This document shows positions 28,852-46,092 of a stretch of DNA of 64,000 bases, piece after piece. Origin of the DNA: an uncultured bacterium (lineage in GTDB: Bacteria; Cyanobacteriota; Vampirovibrionia; Gastranaerophilales; Gastranaerophilaceae); assembly GCA_949300515.1 (NCBI GenBank), contig CASGEP010000001.1, positions 6,740 to 70,739 of the forward strand, in the 5' to 3' direction. The notes beneath the pieces were generated by a model. The model did not search any database, was not told the origin of the DNA, and saw nothing but the letters and a program-made list of their open reading frames with translations. A program made the position numbers and the translations under genes. Numbering within the stretch: the stretch's first letter is position 1; each line of letters starts with the position of its first letter.

Positions 28852-28889
28852 TTGTTAGTCATACCTAACATTTGTTAGACATGCCTAAC
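28852..28889. promoter_or_regulatory. two tandem palindromic operators (DtxR/MntR-type)
   Basis: TGTTAGtcatacCTAACA (28852-28869) and TGTTAGacatgcCTAACA (28872-28889), centres 20 bp apart. They overlap a candidate minus-strand promoter (TTGACA 28915-28910, 17-nt spacer, TATTGT 28892-28887). The half-sites resemble the DtxR iron-box GTTAG..CTAAC. Confidence 0.7.
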
Positions 28890-33039: not shown

Positions 33040-34041
33040 ATGGAGTATTTTACAAAGTATAATGACGAGATTTTAATATGCGATGTGTGCCCGAGGCATT
33101 GCAGACTCAGAAAGGGACAGAGCGGATTTTGCCGCGTAAGGCAAAACACGGGCGAAAAGATAGAACTTGCATCGCGCGGGCATATCACGGGTCTTGCAAT
33201 AGACCCGATTGAAAAAAAGCCCCTGTACCATTTTTTCCCTTCCTCAAAAGTTCTGTCTTTTGGTACGTACGGGTGCAATATGGGCTGCAGATTTTGTCAG
33301 AATTACCACATAACAAAAACACGCAAAGACCCCTTTCAGCTGCCAAAAGTGTCGCCAAAATACATTGTTGAAACCGCAAAAAAATACAACTGCAAAAGTA
33401 TAGCCTTTACATATAACGACCCTGTTATATTTTTTGACTTTGCAAAAGATGTTGCACAAATTGCAAAAAAAGAGGGTATTTACAGCGTTGCCGTAAGTGC
33501 GGGCTACGCGTGCGAGTGTGTAAGAGAAGATTTATTTTGCGAAATGGATGCGCTAAACATAGACCTGAAGTCTTTTTCTAATGATTTTTACGGGAAAAAC
33601 TGCTTTGCAAACCTTGATGTCGTACTTGAAACGATTAAATTTATACACAATAAAACAAACGCCCACCTTGAACTCACTACATTACTGATTGAAGGAGAAA
33701 ATGACTCCAATGACGAGATTGAAGCAATGTGCGGCTGGCTTGTAAAAAATATAGGCAAAGATGTTCCTCTGCACTTTAGCGCTTTTCATGGCGCCTATAA
33801 GTTTGAAAACAAAAAACGTACTTCGCTTGAAACGCTGCTTAGAGCATATAATATCGCGCGCGCCTCAGGCATTAACTACGTTTACATCGGAAATGTAAAC
33901 AACAGCGAAACATCCTGCACATACTGTAAAAACTGCGGCGAAAAACTTATTGAGCGTGAGGGATACAGGATTATAAACCGTAATCTTGATAATCTCTCAC
34001 GCTGCAAAAAGTGTCTTTCTAAACTCGACGGCAGATTTTAG
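33040..34041 (+). CDS. AmmeMemoRadiSam system radical SAM enzyme
   Basis: Contains CDVCPRHC, the radical SAM motif GCNMGCRFCQN and a C-terminal Cys cluster CTYCKNCG...CKKC. Confidence 0.85.
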   Translation: MEYFTKYNDEILICDVCPRHCRLRKGQSGFCRVRQNTGEKIELASRGHITGLAIDPIEKKPLYHFFPSSKVLSFGTYGCNMGCRFCQNYHITKTRKDPFQLPKVSPKYIVETAKKYNCKSIAFTYNDPVIFFDFAKDVAQIAKKEGIYSVAVSAGYACECVREDLFCEMDALNIDLKSFSNDFYGKNCFANLDVVLETIKFIHNKTNAHLELTTLLIEGENDSNDEIEAMCGWLVKNIGKDVPLHFSAFHGAYKFENKKRTSLETLLRAYNIARASGINYVYIGNVNNSETSCTYCKNCGEKLIEREGYRIINRNLDNLSRCKKCLSKLDGRF

Positions 34042-35487
34042 TTACACAATAGGCTTTGAGTCCTTTGTAAACTCGTTAATAGCCTTTGTTGCCGTCCTTA
34101 CATTGCTGATACAGTCGTTACCGCCGACACAGCCGCCTTCACAGCACATGACCTCAATTAAATTACCGAATTCGCACTCGCCTTTTTTGGCAAAACCTTT
34201 AAGTGCCCTTATTGATTCTTTGTTTATACCGTTTACAAGGTAAGGTTTAATTTCGCTTTTGCCGTTATCTGCAGCTTCAACGGATTTTGCAACACCGCCC
34301 GTTATACCGAAATTCCTTCCTTCGCGCGACGGTTCAACCTCATATTGAGTGCCTTCAAGCTCACTCAGTTCAATTTTGTGCGCCACAAACAGTGCGCCCA
34401 ACTCCTCATAGTTCATAACATAGTCTATATTATCATTTTTAAGAGCTTCACTCTTTTTTGCCACACAGGGAGAAATAAACACACTGATTGCATCAGGGTA
34501 TTTCTCTTTGCAAATTTGCGCAATATAGTAAGCGGGCGTTTTAGTTTCCGATCTGAAAGGTGCAATTTCGCCCAGGTGTTTATCAACAAGATTATTATAG
34601 CCGGCACAGCATGAGGTTGTCATAAACTTCTGACCGTTTTCAATTCTTTCCCTGAATTCCTCAGCCTCATTCAGCGCCGTAACGTCCGCACCTTGAGCAA
34701 CTTCAAGTACATCGTAAAATCCGCATTTTAAAAGCGCCGTTTTCAGCTGATAAATTGTACAAGGAAGCTGTCCCACAATGGAGGGAGCAATCATTGCCAC
34801 AACTTTTTTACCCTGTTTAATTCTTGTCAGGATGTCAATTATCTGGCTTTTTTCATGTATTGCGCCAAACGGACATGAACTTACGCACTTGCCGCAGGTT
34901 ATACATTTTTCAAAGTCTATCCTTGCATGTCCCTGTTCATCTTTTGAAATAGCATCCACGGGACATGCGTTTTCACATGGCACAACGATTTTTACAATTG
35001 CATGATATGGGCAGACCTGAATGCATTTTGTACAGTTTTTACATTTAGAGCTGTCAATCTGTGATTTACCGTTAACAATTGATATTGCGCCGAATTTACA
35101 ATTTTCAATACACGGGCGCGCAACACAGCCCTGACACAAATCCGTTACAAAAATTCTGTTTGGAACACAGCCCTTGCATGCCGATTCAAGCACAGTCAGA
35201 GTTTGCTCATCCGGTTTTTCACGCTTTTGTGCTTCTTTTGCATAGTTTGAAAGCAAAACTCTCTCGTCCGAACCTTCAATTGGAAAACCCAAAGTCGCAA
35301 TTATTCTGTTTCTTAAAATTTCTCTTTCTTTATATATACAACACCTGTAGGGCACCTCATGTCCCTTAGGGCGCATTTCAAAAGGTATTAATCTTGTATT
35401 TTCTTCAAAATTGTCTGATAAAAACGCTTTTATTGTTTTAACCAAAATTTCTTTCTTTAAATGTGTTGCCTGATTATTCTTGTCCAT
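34042..35487 (-). CDS. [FeFe] hydrogenase, group B-like, with N-terminal multi-[4Fe-4S] ferredoxin domains
   Basis: H-cluster motifs are TTSCCAGY (L1, Ala in place of the usual Pro), SPCVAKKSE (L2) and EVMCCEGGCVGG (L3). Several CxxCxxCxxxCP motifs lie upstream. Confidence 0.8.
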   Translation of the reverse strand: MDKNNQATHLKKEILVKTIKAFLSDNFEENTRLIPFEMRPKGHEVPYRCCIYKEREILRNRIIATLGFPIEGSDERVLLSNYAKEAQKREKPDEQTLTVLESACKGCVPNRIFVTDLCQGCVARPCIENCKFGAISIVNGKSQIDSSKCKNCTKCIQVCPYHAIVKIVVPCENACPVDAISKDEQGHARIDFEKCITCGKCVSSCPFGAIHEKSQIIDILTRIKQGKKVVAMIAPSIVGQLPCTIYQLKTALLKCGFYDVLEVAQGADVTALNEAEEFRERIENGQKFMTTSCCAGYNNLVDKHLGEIAPFRSETKTPAYYIAQICKEKYPDAISVFISPCVAKKSEALKNDNIDYVMNYEELGALFVAHKIELSELEGTQYEVEPSREGRNFGITGGVAKSVEAADNGKSEIKPYLVNGINKESIRALKGFAKKGECEFGNLIEVMCCEGGCVGGNDCISNVRTATKAINEFTKDSKPIV

Positions 35488-35737
35488 TATTCAACTTTCT
35501 CTCAATCGCTTCCATAACTTTCTCAATTGTTGCTTTATTTATAACTTCATCATCTACCAATACATAAGGAGCCTGCGCTTCGGAGCAGCTTGAACAGTAG
35601 TCAAGACACGTTACACCCTGGATGTCAACACTGTTGCCAAATTTTTTAGGGATAATCTCTTCCAGCTCTTGCAGTTCGGACGCACCCATTACAAAACAGG
35701 TTGTACCCATACATATTTTAACAACGGTTTTTTTCAT
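35474..35737 (-). CDS. thioredoxin-like [2Fe-2S] ferredoxin (NuoE-fold, small)
   Basis: 87 aa with four Cys in the pattern CMGTTC...CLDYCSSC. Confidence 0.7.
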   Translation of the reverse strand: MKKTVVKICMGTTCFVMGASELQELEEIIPKKFGNSVDIQGVTCLDYCSSCSEAQAPYVLVDDEVINKATIEKVMEAIERKLNNGQE

Positions 35738-35746
35738 TTCATCTCC

Positions 35747-36907
35747 TTATATATATCGAACGGTGACTTTCTTAATATACTTGTTTTCAAGAATTTTTGC
35801 CATCTTTTTTATAATATTCTTGCGAATTTCAATTTCAATCGGCAAATTGGGATCGTAATGTGCCTGATTTAATTTTGCACCAACCATAAATTCAATGCAA
35901 TCACTACTAAGTAAAAATTGCATTAAATCATACGCGGCATTTTTTTCTTTGTCGTTAAAGCCGTTTTCAAGATATTCATACGTTTTTGTAAGCGTTAAAA
36001 TACCCTCCGTAACAAGGTCAACACCTTCCATTTGCGACACGGCGGGCAATTTCCCGACACTCCTTACATTATTATAAACGGGAATATTAAGTTCCCGCGA
36101 TATTAAATTAGCCGTGGTGCCGCCGCAAATAGCCTTTTTGGCATCCGAATTATAGAATTCATGCGCATATTCGTTGTCTTTTTCCTGATGATAAGGAGGA
36201 CCCGTGAAAATCAAAGCGCGGCGGGGTTCTCTGTAGTATATCACACAGCAGGAAGTGTCGTCTTTTGCCTTTCTGTCGGCTTCCGTGTTAAGTGCAACCC
36301 TGACTACAAACTTTGCAAGCTCGCTGCTTGAAATGTCGGGCGTATCGTTAATTTTCTCAAGTAAAAATCTTATTAAACCGCTTCGCCTCAATCCGAGTTT
36401 TAACTCGGGGCTGCCAAGACCCGCCTGTGTTACGCCGTCCGAGCAAAATATGAGCCTGTCGCCCAATTTCAACTGCAGCTTATACACTCTCATATGCCTG
36501 TTTGTAAAAGTGTCCGAATCAATAACCGTGTAGGGCGGCTCAACAACATTGTTTCCGCTTATATATACAAAATTGGGGTTGCCTTCTTCTACAATTCTTA
36601 CCTCGCCGTCCTCGCTGCAGTGCGCAACTGAAAAAGTTGAGTAGCTTATCTTGCGCACTTTGCAAACAGGCAGAGAGTTCATAATAACTTCACATGCAGT
36701 TTTAATGTCAGCACCTGCTTCAACAAATTTTAAAAGCATGGTTGCCGTCATTGTAGCCAAAATATTTGCTTTTATTCCGCTGCCTAAACCGTCTGACAGA
36801 ACGGCAATCAAATCCCCGCTTTGCGGATATCTTTTAGATAAAAAGTAATCTCCGTAAGTATTTTGGTTGTATTTTTTCTCTTGTGCACAGTCAATGTCTA
36901 TAAACAT
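35747..36907 (-). CDS. SpoIIE/PP2C-family serine phosphatase
   Basis: LSDGLGSGIKANILATM...FCSDGVTQAG fits the PPM/SpoIIE pattern. The start overlaps the hydS stop. Confidence 0.8.
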   Translation of the reverse strand: MFIDIDCAQEKKYNQNTYGDYFLSKRYPQSGDLIAVLSDGLGSGIKANILATMTATMLLKFVEAGADIKTACEVIMNSLPVCKVRKISYSTFSVAHCSEDGEVRIVEEGNPNFVYISGNNVVEPPYTVIDSDTFTNRHMRVYKLQLKLGDRLIFCSDGVTQAGLGSPELKLGLRRSGLIRFLLEKINDTPDISSSELAKFVVRVALNTEADRKAKDDTSCCVIYYREPRRALIFTGPPYHQEKDNEYAHEFYNSDAKKAICGGTTANLISRELNIPVYNNVRSVGKLPAVSQMEGVDLVTEGILTLTKTYEYLENGFNDKEKNAAYDLMQFLLSSDCIEFMVGAKLNQAHYDPNLPIEIEIRKNIIKKMAKILENKYIKKVTVRYI

Positions 36908-38625
36908 TACTTTTTATCCTCGTCAGAGGTGTCATAGTCTTGTGCTATTGTGCTTAATAAAAGTTCCGTTTCTACCATATGCTCACCCAAAAGACAAGCT
37001 ATTTCCTGTACAATTGCAATATTCTTATTTATAACCTCATGCGCTTTTTGTGCAATTTTTTCTCTGCCCATTTCGCTCTGCGTAACATCGGTAATTATCG
37101 CACCCGCAAGCTCATTTTTTTCTATCGAAAATGCACTTATGTCATAGAGCCTGTTTTTAACGGGATAATGTTCTTTATGTATATCACGCTCGGTTTTAAG
37201 AGTTTCTTTAAAGATATCTGAAAAGTCTATAATCCTGTCTATGCAGGCACCGTTTAAGCCTTCCGGTCTGTCGGAGAATATATCATACATATCCGAGCAG
37301 AACATTTTGATAAATGCTTCGTTGGATTCAACAATTCTTAAATCCTTGTCAACCATAACAATGGCTGAAGGCATACACCTGAGCATTGCCGCGGCTTTTT
37401 GCATAGCTATTTTTCTCATATAAGATACACACATTGAAGGCTCGGCTTCACCTGATAACAAAGCACATGCAAGCTCTCTGCAAGTATTATAACCGCAGCC
37501 GCCGCAGTTAAGTTCGTCCTCTTCCGTGTATTTGCCTATTTTTTTAAGAGCCTCCGAAATCTTTTCATAGCTGTAGTTTGGATTTTCAACGGGTTTTTTT
37601 ACATAGTCTTTCTCAAGCACTGTTTTTGGCTCGTTTGGTATTATTTCTCTCTTTTTAACCTTAGAGAGCGTATCGCTTACTCTTAAAAGTTCGGACTTTT
37701 TGGTCGAACTGCACGGTCCCGCAAGACATCCGCCGTTACAGGAGAGTGCTTCTATAAAGATTTTTTTGTTAAGGCTTTGAGGGTCAAGCCCTTTTAGTGT
37801 TTTTTCAAGATTTTCAATTGAGCTGATATTAATAAACTGAACGTCATCAGCCATGCCGCCCTGTTTAATTGTTTCATTCATTCCGCCTTCAATAGGGTAT
37901 AATGCACCCTCATAAGCGCTCTCGGGGATAAAAGCTTCGCTGCCCGTTTCGTCAATATCATCAGCCGATATAAATTCATCCTGCAGCCAAAATTTCAACT
38001 CCTCAAAGGTAAGAGCCGCATCTATCAGGTCGGGGTTGTGATCGGATTCATTTTTCTTTGCAATGCAGGGTCCGATGAAAACAATGTGAATATGGCTGCC
38101 ATACATCTCCTTAAGCATTTTTGCATGTGTCAGCGCAGGAGAAGCAACCGGAGTAATGCAGGGCAAAAATTTAGTATTGTAGAGTCTTATGTAGTCTACA
38201 ACAACAGGGCAAGCGCTTGAGATAAAAAGCCCCTTATCTTTTTGCTTCATAAGTTTTGCACACTCAATCGACACTTCCTGTGCCCCGAGGGCTGTTTCAC
38301 TTACATACTTAAAACCGAGCTTTTTTAAAAGCGCAATCATCTTTGAAGGACTGTACTCAAAAATACCGCTCCAGCTCGGCGCAAGAGAAACATAAACATC
38401 CTGCTGCGCCCTAAAGAGATTTTTAACTTTTTCAATGTCATTTCTGACTCTTTTTGCGTTATTCGGGCATGCTTGTACACAATTTCCGCAGGCTATACAC
38501 TTATCGGGCAATACCGAGGCATGACCCTGCTGTATGCTAATCGCTTTAACATGACATTGTCTGACACACTTATAACAGTCATGACATTCGTTGTAGAGTG
38601 TGTAAACGGGATAAAGTTTGTCCAT
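36907..38625 (-). CDS. hydS: sensory [FeFe] hydrogenase (group C, HydS-like) with C-terminal PAS domain
   Basis: N-terminal 2x CxxCxxCxxxCP. H-cluster motifs are SSACP (L1, first Cys replaced by Ala), GPCIAKKNE (L2) and LSCNGGCLAGP (L3). There is an extra CGGCGYNTC motif, then a PAS-like region. Confidence 0.82.
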   Translation of the reverse strand: MDKLYPVYTLYNECHDCYKCVRQCHVKAISIQQGHASVLPDKCIACGNCVQACPNNAKRVRNDIEKVKNLFRAQQDVYVSLAPSWSGIFEYSPSKMIALLKKLGFKYVSETALGAQEVSIECAKLMKQKDKGLFISSACPVVVDYIRLYNTKFLPCITPVASPALTHAKMLKEMYGSHIHIVFIGPCIAKKNESDHNPDLIDAALTFEELKFWLQDEFISADDIDETGSEAFIPESAYEGALYPIEGGMNETIKQGGMADDVQFINISSIENLEKTLKGLDPQSLNKKIFIEALSCNGGCLAGPCSSTKKSELLRVSDTLSKVKKREIIPNEPKTVLEKDYVKKPVENPNYSYEKISEALKKIGKYTEEDELNCGGCGYNTCRELACALLSGEAEPSMCVSYMRKIAMQKAAAMLRCMPSAIVMVDKDLRIVESNEAFIKMFCSDMYDIFSDRPEGLNGACIDRIIDFSDIFKETLKTERDIHKEHYPVKNRLYDISAFSIEKNELAGAIITDVTQSEMGREKIAQKAHEVINKNIAIVQEIACLLGEHMVETELLLSTIAQDYDTSDEDKK

Positions 38626-38626
38626 A

Positions 38627-38872
38627 TCAACCCCTGATGTTATCCAGTATTTCTTTTAGCTTTTCTTGTGTAATGTTTGAGTATAACTTACCGTCAATAG
38701 TGATGTTTGGTCCTTGAGCACATTTTCCCTCGCAACGCGAGCCAGATATATCAACATTTGCGTCAAGGTTATATTTTTTTACATAATCTTCAATAAAATT
38801 AAGATGTTCTTCATTGCCCCTCGCATAACAAGAACTACCGAGACATACCGTTATATTTATTTGTTTATCCAT
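38627..38872 (-). CDS. thioredoxin-like [2Fe-2S] ferredoxin (NuoE-fold, small)
   Basis: 81 aa with CLGSSC...SRCEGKC. First gene of the hydS operon. Confidence 0.7.
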   Translation of the reverse strand: MDKQINITVCLGSSCYARGNEEHLNFIEDYVKKYNLDANVDISGSRCEGKCAQGPNITIDGKLYSNITQEKLKEILDNIRG

Positions 38873-38995
38873 TTTACTATTCCTAATACATATACAGTAT
38901 AGTCTAAAGAGAGTATTTAAGCAATTTAATATTTGATTTTAGCTTTTGTGCGTGCAATAATCACCTTAGGGTTGTTAGTAAGTAAGGAGAAATAC

Positions 38996-39496
38996 ATGAG
39001 CACACAAACCTCCGGTGGAATTAACTTCAAGAAAGTTAATGACATCATTGACTCTTGTGGTGCAAAAAAATCCAACCTGATTGCCATTTTACAAAAAGTT
39101 CAGGATGAATTTAAGTACCTGCCCCAAGATGCCATTACCTATATAGGTACAAAAATTGACGGTTTATCACCCGCAACAGTCTATGGCGTTGCAACTTTTT
39201 ACGCACAGTTTTCACTGGAGCCGAAAGGCAAATATGAAATAAAGTGCTGCGACGGTACGGCATGCCACGTCAGAGGGTCTATGCCGGTTTATACATATTT
39301 AATGCAGAGATTTAATCTTAAAGAAGGAAAATATACCTCGGATGACGGCATGTTTTCCGTAGAAACGGTTAGTTGTTTGGGTGCCTGCGGTCTTGCTCCC
39401 GTTGTTGTAATAAACGGCAAAGTCTACCCGCAAATGACATCTGACGCGATTAAAATAATCATTGATACAATTGTTGCGCAGGAAAATGAGGGTTAG
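38996..39496 (+). CDS. hydC: NuoE-like [2Fe-2S] subunit of HydABC-type hydrogenase
   Basis: CDGTACHVRG...CLGACGLAP motif. The ATG at 38996 follows an AAGGAGA SD. Confidence 0.88.
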   Translation: MSTQTSGGINFKKVNDIIDSCGAKKSNLIAILQKVQDEFKYLPQDAITYIGTKIDGLSPATVYGVATFYAQFSLEPKGKYEIKCCDGTACHVRGSMPVYTYLMQRFNLKEGKYTSDDGMFSVETVSCLGACGLAPVVVINGKVYPQMTSDAIKIIIDTIVAQENEG

Positions 39497-39499
39497 ACA

Positions 39500-41368
39500 A
39501 TGGAAACACAAGAAAGAACACTGAATATTGACATTGAACAAGAACGTATAAAAGCAAATGAAGCTATAAAAAAACAAGGTTTGAGAGTGCTTGTATGCAA
39601 CGGTACGGGCTGTATTGCAAACGGCTCAAACGAAGTTATGGAAAAATTTAAAGAGCTCGGCGCCGATGTTTCAATTTTAAGCAGCCATGACAAGGTAACA
39701 ATCGTACCTACAGGCTGCCACGGTTTTTGCGAACAGGGCGTTCTGGTTGTTATACCCGAGTTTGATATTACATATGTTAAAGTTAAACCCGAAGATGTTG
39801 AAGAAATTGTAAACTCTCACATTAAAGACGGCAAACCCGTAGAGCGCCTGCTCTATACAGATCCTAAGACCAACAGGCATGTTTATAAAAATGAAGAAAT
39901 TAATTTTTATGCGAAACAATCAAGAACATCCCTTAAAAATTGCGGTGAAATCAATGCAGAGTGCATAGATGAAGCAATTGCCGAAGGTGCATACAGAGCA
40001 TTGGCAAAAGTTCTCGAGCAAAACAACCCTGAAGCTGTTATCGAGGAAATCGAAAAATCAGGCCTTAGAGGCAGAGGCGGCGGCGGTTTCCCGACAGGCA
40101 GAAAATGGCGTTTTACCGCGGCCAATCGCGGCGGAAAATCATACGTTGTATGTAACGGTGATGAAGGTGACCCGGGCGCATTTATGGACAGATCAGTTAT
40201 GGAAGGCGATCCGCATAAACTGCTTGAAGGTATGGCTATCGCAGGTTTTGCAATCGGTGCGGATGAAGCATACATTTACGTGCGTGCAGAATATCCTCTT
40301 GCGATTAAAAGACTCAGAATTGCTATAAAGCAGGCTGAAGAAAGAAATCTTCTTGGTCAAAATATCATGGGCAGCGGCTTTAATTTTGATATTCACATTA
40401 AAGAAGGAGCCGGAGCATTTGTTTGCGGTGAAGAAACGGCTCTTATGGCTTCAATTGAAGGTGAGCGCGGCATGCCAAGACCCAAACCGCCGTTCCCTGC
40501 TAACTGCGGTCTTTTCGGACGCCCCACCCTTATTAATAACGTGGAAACACTGGCAAATGTTCCCGTTATTATTGATAAAGGAGCGCAATGGTTCTCCTCA
40601 TTCGGCACCGAAACATCAAAAGGTACAAAAACTTTCGCACTGACAGGCGAAGTAAACAACACAGGCCTTATTGAGGTACCTATGGGTACAACTTTAAGAG
40701 AAATCGTCTTTGATATAGGCGGCGGGATAAGAAACGGCAAAAAATTCAAAGCCGTACAAATAGGAGGCCCTTCGGGCGGATGTTTAACGGAAGAACACCT
40801 TGATATACCAATGGACTATGACAACCTTATAAAAGCAGGCGCAATGGTCGGCTCGGGCGGACTTGTCGTTATGAACGAGGACACCTGTATTGTTGAAGTT
40901 GCGCGCTTCTTTATGCACTTTACACAGAGCGAAAGCTGCGGTAAATGCGTACCATGCCGCGAAGGTACAAAAAATATGTTGAAAATATTGGAAAAAATCG
41001 TTCGCGGACAGGGAGAGATGAAAGACCTCGACACTCTTGAAGAGCTTGCTATAGCCGTAAAAGAAGGTTCGCTGTGCGGTTTGGGTAAAACGGCTCCAAA
41101 CCCTGTTTTATCGACTCTTAAATACTTTAGGGACGAATACATTGCGCACATTAAGGACAAAAGATGTCCCGCCGGCGTTTGCAGTGCACTTAAAGTTATT
41201 AAAATTAACGAAGAACTCTGCAAAGGCTGTACAAAATGTGCGAGAAACTGCCCTGTGGGCGCAATTGAGGGCACTGTGAAAAATCCTCATAAAATTAATC
41301 AGGAAAAATGTATTAAATGCGGTGCATGTATTAGCGCATGTCCGTTTAAGGCTATTTCACAGGCGTAA
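39500..41368 (+). CDS. hydB: NuoF-like NAD(P)H-binding flavoprotein subunit of HydABC-type hydrogenase
   Basis: N-terminal 2Fe-2S domain, GRGGGGFPTG.KW, GDEGDPGAFMDR, SCGKCVPCREG, and two C-terminal 4Fe-4S motifs. Confidence 0.92.
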   Translation: METQERTLNIDIEQERIKANEAIKKQGLRVLVCNGTGCIANGSNEVMEKFKELGADVSILSSHDKVTIVPTGCHGFCEQGVLVVIPEFDITYVKVKPEDVEEIVNSHIKDGKPVERLLYTDPKTNRHVYKNEEINFYAKQSRTSLKNCGEINAECIDEAIAEGAYRALAKVLEQNNPEAVIEEIEKSGLRGRGGGGFPTGRKWRFTAANRGGKSYVVCNGDEGDPGAFMDRSVMEGDPHKLLEGMAIAGFAIGADEAYIYVRAEYPLAIKRLRIAIKQAEERNLLGQNIMGSGFNFDIHIKEGAGAFVCGEETALMASIEGERGMPRPKPPFPANCGLFGRPTLINNVETLANVPVIIDKGAQWFSSFGTETSKGTKTFALTGEVNNTGLIEVPMGTTLREIVFDIGGGIRNGKKFKAVQIGGPSGGCLTEEHLDIPMDYDNLIKAGAMVGSGGLVVMNEDTCIVEVARFFMHFTQSESCGKCVPCREGTKNMLKILEKIVRGQGEMKDLDTLEELAIAVKEGSLCGLGKTAPNPVLSTLKYFRDEYIAHIKDKRCPAGVCSALKVIKINEELCKGCTKCARNCPVGAIEGTVKNPHKINQEKCIKCGACISACPFKAISQA

Positions 41369-41379
41369 GAGAGGTAAAA

Positions 41380-43137
41380 ATGACAAATACACTATTTATA
41401 AACGGAAAAGAATGCGAATATACAAACGAGCCGAATTTGCTTGAAGTAATAAGAAATAACGGCTTTAGCGTACCTACATTTTGCTACAGACCCGACTTAA
41501 CACAGTACGGCGCCTGCAGAATGTGTGTTGTTGAAATTGAAGGACGCGGAATACAGTCATCATGCACGATGCCGCCTGAACCGGGTCTTAAAATTCACAC
41601 AAACACAGAAAAAACAAGAAGAATAAGAAAAATAGTTCTTGAGCTTCTTCTTGCAAACCACGACAGAGAATGCACAACCTGCGACAAGTCGGGCAAATGC
41701 GAGCTTCAAAAATACGCTCAGGAATACGGCATAAACGATATAAGATTTGCAAAGAAAAAACCGCAAGACTATTTGCCGATTGATAACTCCAATCCGTCAA
41801 TCGTGCGCGATCCCAATAAATGTATACTCTGCGGTGCGTGCGTTCGTGCTTGTGCGGAGTTTCAAGGTCACAGCGTGTTAGGCTTTGCAAACAGGGGCTC
41901 AAAAACCGTTGTACAGCCAATGGCAGGCAGGGCTCTTGGCAGCGTGGACTGCGTTTTCTGCGGACAGTGTCAGGCAGTTTGTCCCACAGGTGCGCTCACG
42001 ATTAAAACAGACATCGACAGAGTATGGGATTTAATAAACGATAAAAATAAGAAAACTGCAGTTCAAATGGCGCCGTCGGTGCGTGTTGCACTGGGTGAAG
42101 AATTTGGGCTCAAACCCGGCGAAAATGTAATTGGCAAGTTCAATGCGGCGCTAAGACAGCTCGGATTTGATCTGGTATTTGACACTAATTTCTCGGCAGA
42201 TTTAACAATCATGGAAGAAGCAACCGAATTTATTGAGCGGCTTACAAAGGGTGAAAACCTGCCTCTGTTTACTTCTTGCTGTCCGGCATGGGTTAGATAC
42301 CTTGAAACACAACACCCTGATTTGCTGAATCATTTATCAAGCTGCAAATCACCACAGGGTATGTTATCTCCCGTTATTAAAGCGGTTGTGCCCAAATATT
42401 TTGAAGACTATACGGAAGAAAATCTGTATGTTGTATCTATAATGCCATGTACCGCAAAGAAAGCGGAAGCAGTACGCGGACAACTCTACAGCAACGGCAG
42501 AGCACAGACCGATGTTGTTTTAACAACGCAAGAAATTGCAAGAATGCTAAAATCAGCAGGGATAAATCTTGCAACAATTACGCCTGAAGCTAATGACTCT
42601 CCTTTTGGACAATATACAGGTGCAGCAACTATTTTTGGAGCTTCAGGCGGTGTTGCGGAAGCTGCTGTGCGTACGGCATATGAATTTGTAACGCATGAAT
42701 CTCTTGAAAATATTGACTTTAAACCGCTGCGTGGTGTTGACAAAGCTCACAGAGCAAAAGAAGCTGAAATTGACATTAAAGGCACAAAGGTAAAAGTCAG
42801 AGTTGTATCAACTCTAAAAGAAGCAGAAAAATCAATTCGTGAATTAAAAGAAGGTAAGGCTGATTTTCAACTTCTGGAAGTAATGGCATGCCCCGGCGGC
42901 TGTGTAAACGGCGGCGGACAGCCAAGGAGCTGCGACAACTCGCAAATTAAAGAGGAGCGCGCACAGGGACTTTATAAAGAGGACTCAGAACTGCCCTTTA
43001 GAAAGTCGCACACAAACCCTGATATTATCAAACTTTATGAGGAATTTTTGGAAAAACCGAACTCACACAAAGCGCACGAGCTTTTGCACACCACATACTC
43101 GGATATGTTTAAAAATTCCTACAGAGACCTTGTATAA
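41380..43137 (+). CDS. hydA: [FeFe] hydrogenase catalytic subunit, group A (bifurcating-type architecture)
   Basis: N-terminal 2Fe-2S (CRMCVVE) and FeS clusters. Canonical H-cluster motifs TSCCPAW, MPCTAKKAE and EVMACPGGCVNGGG. Confidence 0.93.
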   Translation: MTNTLFINGKECEYTNEPNLLEVIRNNGFSVPTFCYRPDLTQYGACRMCVVEIEGRGIQSSCTMPPEPGLKIHTNTEKTRRIRKIVLELLLANHDRECTTCDKSGKCELQKYAQEYGINDIRFAKKKPQDYLPIDNSNPSIVRDPNKCILCGACVRACAEFQGHSVLGFANRGSKTVVQPMAGRALGSVDCVFCGQCQAVCPTGALTIKTDIDRVWDLINDKNKKTAVQMAPSVRVALGEEFGLKPGENVIGKFNAALRQLGFDLVFDTNFSADLTIMEEATEFIERLTKGENLPLFTSCCPAWVRYLETQHPDLLNHLSSCKSPQGMLSPVIKAVVPKYFEDYTEENLYVVSIMPCTAKKAEAVRGQLYSNGRAQTDVVLTTQEIARMLKSAGINLATITPEANDSPFGQYTGAATIFGASGGVAEAAVRTAYEFVTHESLENIDFKPLRGVDKAHRAKEAEIDIKGTKVKVRVVSTLKEAEKSIRELKEGKADFQLLEVMACPGGCVNGGGQPRSCDNSQIKEERAQGLYKEDSELPFRKSHTNPDIIKLYEEFLEKPNSHKAHELLHTTYSDMFKNSYRDLV

Positions 43138-43161: not shown

Positions 43162-43190
43162 AAACCGGACAATATTCTTGTCCGGTTTTT
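43162..43190 (+). terminator. rho-independent terminator after hydA
   Basis: AAACCGGACAA-tattc-TTGTCCGGTTT followed by TT. Confidence 0.8.
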
Positions 43191-45302: not shown

Positions 45303-46092
45303 TTGAACAACAAAAAAAGCCGAAAGCAAAAAAGATGATGTTATAGAAGTTGAGGACACGCGCCCCGAATATATGAAAAAAAAGGGTGCTTGTTCCCTGT
45401 ATTACCGCAATTGTATTTTTAATTTGCGGGATATTTTGCGCAATCCATGCCGTGTTTTACAAATCAACAGACGATGCCTTTATAGAGGGTCATATGATAA
45501 CAGTGGCTCCAAGGGTGTCAGGGCAGGTAATAAAGCTCAATATTGATGACAATCAAGAGGTTAGCGAGGGCGATTTACTGCTTGAAATCGACCCTAATGA
45601 CTACATTGCCAAACTGAAGGAAGCAAAAGCAAAGCTCGAGGAGCCTCTATTAAACGGCTCGAGGCAGAGGTGGAGCAGGATGAACTGAACCTTTCATATA
45701 CAAAAATCTATGCTTCATCAAACGACATGATAACAAACCGCACGGTAGAACATGGGAACTATGTGCAGGTGGCGCAGCCGCTGTTTGCAATAGTGCCGCA
45801 GAAAATGTGGGTTGTGGCAAACTTTAAAGAAACCCAGCTTGCAAATATGAAACCCGGACAGCCCGTAAAAATAAAAATAGACACCTACGGGGCAAAAAAA
45901 TTTAAAGGGAAGGTCGACAGCATTCAGCGCTCAACGGGGGCAAGAGCAAGTCTTTTCCCGCCTGAAAACGCGGTCGGAAGTTATGTAAAAATCGTACAAA
46001 GAGTGCCCGTAAAAATTATATTTACGGAAGATATCTCAAACTACAACATAGTTCCCGGCATGTCTGTTGTTCCGGAGGTCAAAGTAAAATAA
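45303..46092 (+). pseudogene. HlyD/EmrA-family periplasmic adaptor, disrupted by frameshifts
   Basis: A strong AAGGAGA SD precedes the TTG at 45303. The recognisable EmrA sequence is split over at least three frames (STDDAFIEGHMITVAPRVSGQV..., then LNLSYTKIYASSNDMI...). Breaks lie at A7 (45312-45318), A8 (45376-45383) and a 23-bp insert (45634-45656). Confidence 0.7.

Follow-up and report, generated by a model that had tools for sequence, protein, structure and literature searches.

A hydrogenase locus in the genome of an uncultured gut bacterium was found to combine a putative sensory [FeFe] hydrogenase (HydS) with a PP2C-type phosphatase that follows it in every distant lineage compared and that carries a conserved, unnamed C-terminal domain. 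The locus occupies positions 34042-43137 of the window, that is, of the whole 64,000-nt stretch of DNA analysed here (positions 6,740-70,739 of contig CASGEP010000001.1, assembly GCA_949300515.1). It was recognised as the published hfsABCD, or "group C3, phosphatase-linked", module, present here in a metagenome-assembled genome (MAG) of Gastranaerophilales. The phylum is new for this module; the kind of module is already known. The locus itself is an ordinary copy, and what makes it useful is the obligate pairing of the two genes, the unnamed domain and the kinase-less genomes in which they reside. The five-gene set on the minus strand (38872→34042), which is divergent from hydCBA, comprises the following elements, the phosphatase being divided into its two domains.

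38627..38872, minus strand: Fd81, thioredoxin-like [2Fe-2S] protein of 81 aa in the HfsA position (C-terminal half of PF01257, E=4e-13)
36907..38625, minus strand: HydS, 572 aa, putative sensory [FeFe] hydrogenase of group C (M2f-type), assigned by Pfam domains and motifs
36236..36907, minus strand: PP2C/SpoIIE-type domain, residues 1-224 of an HfsC-like protein of 386 aa (PF07228, E=6e-13)
35747..36235, minus strand: C-terminal domain of the same protein, residues 225-386 (162 aa) plus stop codon; alpha/beta domain in the AlphaFold2 (AF2) model
35474..35737, minus strand: Fd87, second thioredoxin-like [2Fe-2S] protein, 87 aa (PF01257/DUF1450)
34042..35487, minus strand: group B [FeFe] hydrogenase, 481 aa, in the HfsD/HydA2 position (TIGR04105, B1)

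A preliminary description of this DNA had listed eight open reading frames (ORFs) for the locus, with spacings or overlaps of 1-14 nt within the minus-strand operon. An ORF map placed all eight at the same coordinates, and the junctions measured on the minus strand were a 1-nt gap between Fd81 and HydS, a 1-nt overlap between the HydS stop and the PP2C start (TAATG), a 9-nt gap between PP2C and Fd87, and a 14-nt overlap between Fd87 and the group B gene. The ferredoxin-like character assigned there to the 81- and 87-aa proteins and the group-B-like character of the 481-aa protein are confirmed by the PF01257 and TIGR04105 matches, and the divergent genes proved to have the HydABC architecture in all three subunits, as had been proposed. 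What had been left out is that the whole module was already described and genetically studied.

According to published accounts (Shaw 2009, as described in PMC5707799 and PMC11837493), hfsABCD of Thermoanaerobacterium encodes a small HfsA, a PAS-bearing hydrogenase HfsB, a Ser phosphatase HfsC and a ferredoxin-linked HfsD similar to Ruminococcus albus HydA2. These accounts state that hfs is the main H2-evolving system of T. saccharolyticum, that deletion of hfsB raised the adhE and rex transcripts as well as hydrogenase activity, and that the hfs deletion phenotypes indicate a regulatory role connected with adhE and rex. They also compare hfsB/hfsD with R. albus 7, in which HydS, a putative H2 sensor, and the ferredoxin-dependent HydA2 are arranged in a comparable way (Zheng et al. 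2014, J Bacteriol 196:3840, as cited there); the locus analysed here has the same HydS/HydA2 arrangement, with HydABC as the third hydrogenase. The likeness to hfsABCD of T. saccharolyticum and T. thermosaccharolyticum extends to the gene order, a separate hydABC(D) and the adhE/rex link. However, the present locus includes, between its phosphatase and group B hydrogenase genes, an extra gene for an 87-aa [2Fe-2S] protein, its operon is divergent from hydCBA, and it belongs to a diderm Melainabacterium whose genome measures 1.7 Mb. Co-localisation of hydS, PP2C and ADH genes has been reported in Kiritimatiellia (2026 preprint), and a paper on hydrogen metabolism in Melainabacteria does not mention sensory hydrogenases or phosphatases.

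HydS and its phosphatase

HydS contains two N-terminal Fer4 domains, the Fe_hyd_lg_C domain (PF02906, E=3e-44) and, at residues 372-400, a four-Cys [4Fe-4S] site matching PF04060 (E=2e-9; CGGCGYNTC at 374). The motifs SSACP (136), GPCIAKK (185) and SCNGGC (295) supply all four H-cluster-ligating cysteines (Cys139, Cys187, Cys296 and Cys300). In the L1 motif SSACP, Ala138 replaces the proton-relay Cys (C299 of CpI), and in the L3 motif EALSCNGGC, Ser295 stands in place of Met497. SSACP is invariant in 67 HydS orthologues, which have A, G or S, and never Met, at the L3 position. The same two substitutions occur in TmHydS of Thermotoga maritima (group C/M2f; A131 and S267; PMC10055695), and low-activity sensor hydrogenases likewise lack the proton-relay Cys (PMC10055695). 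Both proteins have two N-terminal [4Fe-4S] clusters and a four-Cys cluster near the C-terminus; a PAS domain is present in TmHydS and weakly detected here, and an atypical C-terminal [4Fe-4S] cluster plus PAS is the layout of group C (M2f) hydrogenases (PMC13104023). The two differ in L2, which reads GPC here and MPC in TmHydS. The sensory assignment proposed earlier for this protein thus holds (Ala138, Ser295, the C-terminal [4Fe-4S] site and a weakly matched PAS-like tail). Judged by these sequence features, HydS is a genuine group C enzyme of the sensory type, and its homology to such enzymes suggests that it senses H2.

The phosphatase gene begins within the HydS stop codon. The PF07228 match is confined to residues 30-223 of the 386-aa product, and residues 224-386 received no domain call. 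The PP2C metal-binding motifs are intact: GDYF (19), SDGLGSG (38), CSDG (155) and KDDTS (215), with Asp20, Asp39, Asp157 and Asp216-217 retained by at least 90% of the 19 diverse members of the family that were compared. The AlphaFold model of the full-length protein was obtained with a predicted local distance difference test (pLDDT) score of 89.6 and a predicted TM-score (pTM) of 0.83, and its N-terminal half matched SpoIIE, RsbX, 3pu9 and other PP2Cs with E~1e-13 in Foldseek. The likeness to SpoIIE/RsbU/RsbX therefore covers the PP2C fold, the metal-binding Asp motifs and the best structural matches. In contrast to that class, the regulatory module is located here at the C-terminus and has an unrelated, unnamed fold, and a cognate STAS substrate and RsbW kinase were not found in the genome.

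The C-terminal extension, previously noted as uncharacterised and ~150 aa in length, is real and measures 162 aa, with no match in Pfam, NCBIfam or the PDB. Modelled alone with AF2, it adopted an alternating beta/alpha fold (pLDDT 88.8). Sequence and profile searches of the PDB, Pfam and NCBIfam gave no relative of this domain, and the Foldseek comparison with the PDB returned only generic flavodoxin/methylglyoxal-synthase-like folds (best E 1.4e-3, TM-score ≤0.48). An assignment to the ATP-binding NBD_C domain (PF17042) was considered because of weak hits in 2 of 19 members and was rejected, as hhalign against 12 genuine NBD_C kinases gave a probability of 0.04%.

An exhaustive search with the domain alone showed that the family comprises at least 816 clusters (50% identity) at E≤1e-3, and in every full-length match the domain forms the C-terminal part of a PP2C protein of ~380-430 aa. 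In the profile search, 7,999 of 8,000 scored candidates had E≤1e-20. The members with a named source belong to Ignavibacteriota, Bacteroidota, Bacillota, Elusimicrobiota, Lentisphaeria and Fibrobacterales. The invariant or near-invariant positions lie at strand ends (TGPP, D244, CGGTTA, LVTEG, D336 and N347 of VGxxxN) and, clustered in the model, look like a binding pocket. We propose that the domain is a HydS-docking or ligand-binding module. One member of alignment A1, P0213, has lost the PP2C Asp motifs and kept the motifs of the C-terminal domain, which hints that this domain may be under selection by itself.

Conservation of the HydS-PP2C pair and the search for kinases

MAGs of Candidatus Gastranaerophilales/Galligastranaerophilus (gut Melainabacteria) supplied both the closest homologues and the full set of 80 related loci. 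The operon is kept in nearly all 80 of them, down to ~60% identity, so the five-gene arrangement is not due to chance; the divergent hydCBA neighbour is confined to the nearest genera. PP2C lies directly downstream of hydS in nearly all of these loci, and in each of eight distant lineages it is located immediately 3' of the HydS gene (Fe_hyd_lg_C plus PF04060), at a spacing of -4 to +4 nt; as a rule the two genes overlap. Among these eight lineages, rex is adjacent in four and hydCBA in five. Given this constant adjacency, HydS and PP2C constitute the invariant core of the module, and the small ferredoxins, the group B hydrogenase, HydABC, Rex and AdhE are its interchangeable neighbours.

Several loci illustrate this exchange, in which the module is recombined with adhE-rex and hydCBA throughout the order. 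The Fd87 and group B genes are lost jointly in L025, L026, L027, L030 and L070, all of which retain Fd-HydS-PP2C and four of which adjoin hydCBA. In Elusimicrobia, Fibrobacterales and Lentisphaeria, as in L025-27, no group B gene accompanies the pair. The adhE-rex genes are located directly upstream, in the same orientation, in 16 of the 67 Gastranaerophilales loci with enough upstream sequence, and adhE alone in four more. In the genome under study, adhE-rex is carried by a separate contig, C24 (G000:C24:43760-47125; L117:261-3626), and adhE is preceded by a good predicted Rex box, TTGTGAAATAAATCACGA (L117:214-231).

The genome (1.72 Mb in 57 contigs, 94.6% complete) and, by extension, 30 relatives were searched for kinases and partner-switching components. 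The genome and each of 11 genus relatives were found to have a single SpoIIE-family phosphatase, the HydS-linked PP2C. The RsbW-type domain HATPase_c_2 (PF13581) gave no match over the cut-off in the genome or in the 11 genus relatives; the weak matches fall within long ORFs, one of which was examined and proved to be a histidine kinase. No match over the cut-off was obtained for Pkinase (Hanks-type) in the genus. HPr kinase was absent from the 16 genomes searched, which rules it out as a source of phospho-Ser. Canonical partner switching in this lineage thus appears unlikely, since kinases of the RsbW, Hanks and HPr types were not found in the genus. In three relatives we observed a protein of 777-789 aa in which a SpoIIE-type PP2C and an RsbW-type HATPase_c_2 domain are fused, resembling Rv1364c (G017:C36:10425-11411, G024:C2:135991-137007 and G029:C30:15278-16273); G029 also has the HydS-linked phosphatase.

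STAS domains in the genome were detected inside long, transporter-sized ORFs and in one 335-aa protein with a receiver domain fused to STAS (REC-STAS; G000:C15:32905-33909, L005:763-1770). The REC-STAS protein is kept across the genus and in several relatives, and a manual alignment places what is apparently an Asp at the phospho-Ser position. It was rejected as the phosphatase substrate because of this apparently missing Ser and because its distribution does not track that of PP2C: relatives G022, G026 and G028 have REC-STAS without PP2C, and G012, G015, G025 and G030 have PP2C without REC-STAS.

The preliminary description had reported no kinase, anti-sigma factor or DNA-binding gene at the locus and had therefore assigned no target to the phosphatase. 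None of these was found in the flanks either, the search for RsbW/RsbV-like partners, suggested there as a check, gave no RsbW over the cut-off and no cognate STAS protein, and the absence of an assigned target is upheld and strengthened by the genome-wide kinase searches.

A model of the module and its alternatives

We propose that HydS is a slow hydrogenase without the proton-relay Cys which, fed by its own small [2Fe-2S] protein, would report the H2 or redox state. It is translationally coupled with a phosphatase predicted to be catalytically competent, and it may touch this phosphatase directly through the family-specific C-terminal alpha/beta domain, thereby setting its activity. The phosphatase would then alter the phosphorylation of a target other than the classical RsbV/RsbW pair, and electron flow would shift between H2 production, through the divergent HydABC and the co-transcribed group B hydrogenase with the small ferredoxin that belongs to it, and ethanol, through AdhE/Rex. 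We consider this sequence of events, taken as a whole, to be probable, if well short of certain. It is favoured by the TmHydS-like signature of HydS, the hfs-like gene order and the hfs genetics, the conserved motifs and fold of the PP2C domain and the conservation of the C-terminal domain. The adjacency of hydS and PP2C, the single PP2C and lack of a canonical kinase, the recurrent linkage with rex, adhE and hydCBA, and the conserved divergent promoters described below argue in the same direction.

Several points weigh against this model. The PAS domain of HydS, at residues 413-516, scores below the Pfam cut-offs (PAS_8, 17.9 bits against 21.8; PAS_9, 17.5 bits against 27). The phosphatase was likened to HfsC by the published description of the latter, and the likeness extends only putatively to the C-terminal domain; among the profile matches listed, the Firmicutes member is one "Bacillota bacterium" MAG, with no named Thermoanaerobacterium HfsC. 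The genome has a PP2C and no detected Ser/Thr kinase, which leaves the origin of the phospho-substrate unexplained. The C-terminal cluster of TamHydS keeps its redox state under H2 (PMC13104023), so the route of signal transmission is unsettled; that the signalling path is not worked out, as the preliminary description had remarked, is an acknowledged open question for putative sensory [FeFe] hydrogenases. What the analysis shows is the gene content, motifs, folds and conservation, the adjacency of hydS and PP2C and the absence of canonical kinases; we infer the sensing itself, the contact between HydS and the phosphatase, and the target.

A bolder reading, which we hold only tentatively, is that the HydS-linked PP2C is a self-sufficient signalling partner of sensory [FeFe] hydrogenases, independent of kinases, with a new HydS-docking or metabolite-binding domain and a non-classical substrate (for instance the group B hydrogenase or ferredoxin, AdhE or Rex). 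The substrate might in that case be an autophosphorylating or otherwise modified redox enzyme outside any partner-switching cascade. If this were true, the thousands of adjacent HydS/PP2C pairs would represent the long-sought partner of the sensory hydrogenase and would provide co-evolution data for the interface.

Rex might instead be the DNA-binding output of the module, with HydS-PP2C modulating it directly or via NADH/NAD+, and Rex controlling adhE and the hydrogenase genes. The adjacency of rex in half of the distant lineages, the upstream adhE-rex genes in about a quarter of the Gastranaerophilales loci, the Rex box predicted at adhE-rex in the genome itself and the raised adhE and rex transcripts of the hfsB deletion are all consistent with this. 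However, a search of the hyd divergent region for a Rex operator of N6 or N4 spacing found none, and across the window the matches stayed at chance level; control of this region by a Rex operator was therefore dropped. Furthermore, rex is located here on another contig, and its adjacency elsewhere may mean only a shared regulon. Phosphorylation of Rex is not known, which also counts against this explanation. Overall, we regard it as unlikely.

A comparably low probability was given to a structural role, in which HydS is a working subunit, catalytic or for electron transfer, beside the group B enzyme, the phosphatase tunes the complex post-translationally, and there is no H2 sensor controlling expression. 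The role of hfs as the main H2-evolving system of T. saccharolyticum, the increased hydrogenase activity of its hfsB deletion, the tight translational coupling of the five genes, and the fact that each hydrogenase has its own small ferredoxin, with Fd87 and the group B gene being lost together, agree with such a complex. Against it stand the lineages in which hydS-PP2C occurs without group B and the missing proton-relay Cys in 67 of 67 HydS orthologues, as in low-activity sensors.

It is quite improbable that the protein is a pseudo-phosphatase or scaffold whose real activity, e.g. small-molecule-binding or enzymatic, resides in the C-terminal domain. No kinase was found that could make a phospho-substrate, the invariant acidic and Gly-rich pocket at the strand ends is typical of ligand-binding Rossmann-like folds, and P0213 has dispensed with the PP2C Asp motifs, but these motifs are conserved across the diverse members, and no enzymatic relative of the C-terminal domain was detected, the NBD_C assignment having failed. 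Least probable, and in our view very unlikely, is classical partner switching, in which PP2C would dephosphorylate an unlinked RsbV/SpoIIAA-like STAS antagonist phosphorylated by an RsbW-type kinase/anti-sigma factor encoded elsewhere: the phosphatase does belong to the SpoIIE/RsbU/RsbX structural class and the genome does encode a REC-STAS protein, but HATPase_c_2 stays below the cut-off in the genome and its 11 genus relatives (the weak match examined being a histidine kinase), the remaining STAS domains occur only inside long, transporter-sized ORFs, and REC-STAS apparently lacks the phospho-site Ser in the manual alignment and does not co-vary with PP2C.

Identification of the interaction partners of sensory [FeFe] hydrogenases has been called critical (2026 paper, PMC13104023). 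The comparative analysis narrows this search, since the phosphatase alone among the neighbours of HydS is constant across phyla and its conserved, unannotated C-terminal domain is a natural candidate for the contact surface. The occurrence of this PP2C in small Melainabacteria genomes without a recognisable Ser/Thr kinase speaks against partner switching of the usual kind. The module steers flux between H2 and ethanol in biofuel organisms, and probably also the release of H2 by gut Melainabacteria.

Partner genes, HydABC and transcription signals

Fd81 has the cysteines Cys10/15/47/51 in a CX4C...CX3C set and is kept upstream of HydS in the related loci and in the Lentisphaeria and Fibrobacterales contexts; it is presumably the redox partner of HydS. 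Fd87, which matches the C-terminal half of PF01257 and carries an analogous set (CX4C...CX3C; Cys9/14/44/48), is presumably the partner of the group B hydrogenase. The latter scored 511.6 bits against the NCBIfam model TIGR04105 (cut-off 450) and contains the motifs TSCCAG (291), SPCVAKK (339) and EVMCCEGGC (447). L1 TSCCAG, with SPCVAKK as L2, is fixed in 61 of the 63 group B orthologues. CpIII and ToHydA, which represent the group B (M2a) enzymes characterised so far, have TSCCCP as L1, with an additional Cys, and the group B subtype found here thus differs from them.

The features of the divergent operon and the predicted transcription signals are as follows.

38896..38924, minus strand: predicted sigma-70-type promoter of the five-gene operon; -35 TTGCTT (38924-38919), 17-nt spacer, -10 TATACT (38901-38896)
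38933..38961, plus strand: predicted hydCBA promoter; TTGATT, 17 nt, extended -10 TG-AATAAT (promoter scan and footprint)
38997..39496, plus strand: hydC, NuoE-like [2Fe-2S] subunit (PF01257, E=3e-46; start revised)
39500..41368, plus strand: hydB, NuoF-like FMN/NADH subunit (PF01512, PF10589, Fer4, PF01257)
41380..43137, plus strand: hydA, catalytic subunit of HydABC type, bifurcating/NADH-linked (NF040763, TIGR02512)
43162..43188, no strand assigned: palindromic hairpin terminator downstream of hydA (11-bp stem with a T-run behind it)

HydB carries an N-terminal [2Fe-2S] and two C-terminal [4Fe-4S] clusters. HydA has the canonical motifs TSCCP/MPCTAKK/EVMACPGGC and an architecture of group A3/A6 type (2Fe-2S, NuoG-type and 2x4Fe-4S domains, H-domain and SSU tail). 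It scored 489 bits against TIGR02512 (cut-off 406) and 763.6 bits against NF040763, the latter marginally under the "exception" cut-off of 765. Of the HydG-like maturase, only the last 41 codons were present, at a contig end (G000:C6:75177-75299); the truncation is an assembly break and says nothing of gene absence.

In a phylogenetic footprint, the two divergent promoters appeared as conserved sigma-70-type elements arranged back-to-back, with their -35 boxes 8 bp apart; the TATACT -10 box of the five-gene operon was invariant in 19 loci. The hydC ORF as listed starts with TTG at 38933, and the same TTG is part of the -35 hexamer TTGATT of hydCBA. The gene most likely starts with the ATG at 38997, behind the ribosome-binding site AAGGAG, and with the start so placed the divergent region measures 124 bp.

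The hydC leader holds a CTAACAAC block that is conserved in the footprint across related loci. At window positions 38969-38978 of this leader, the conserved block GGGTTGTTAG reads CTAACAACCC on the opposite strand and is kept across related loci. The TGTTAG of the hydC-leader block equals a half-site of the DtxR-like palindromes at 28852-28889; only a single half-site is present here, and the resemblance may be a coincidence.

At the other end of the locus, a radical-SAM gene on the plus strand (ending at 34041) and the group B gene on the minus strand (ending at 34042) converge with abutting stop codons, leaving zero intergenic space and no terminator hairpin between them. The flanking genes comprise an AmmeMemoRadiSam pair, a nitroreductase gene and efflux genes. 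A pair of ORFs of 100 and 140 aa at 45386-46092, considered as RsbV/RsbW-like, was found to be a broken HlyD/EmrA adaptor.

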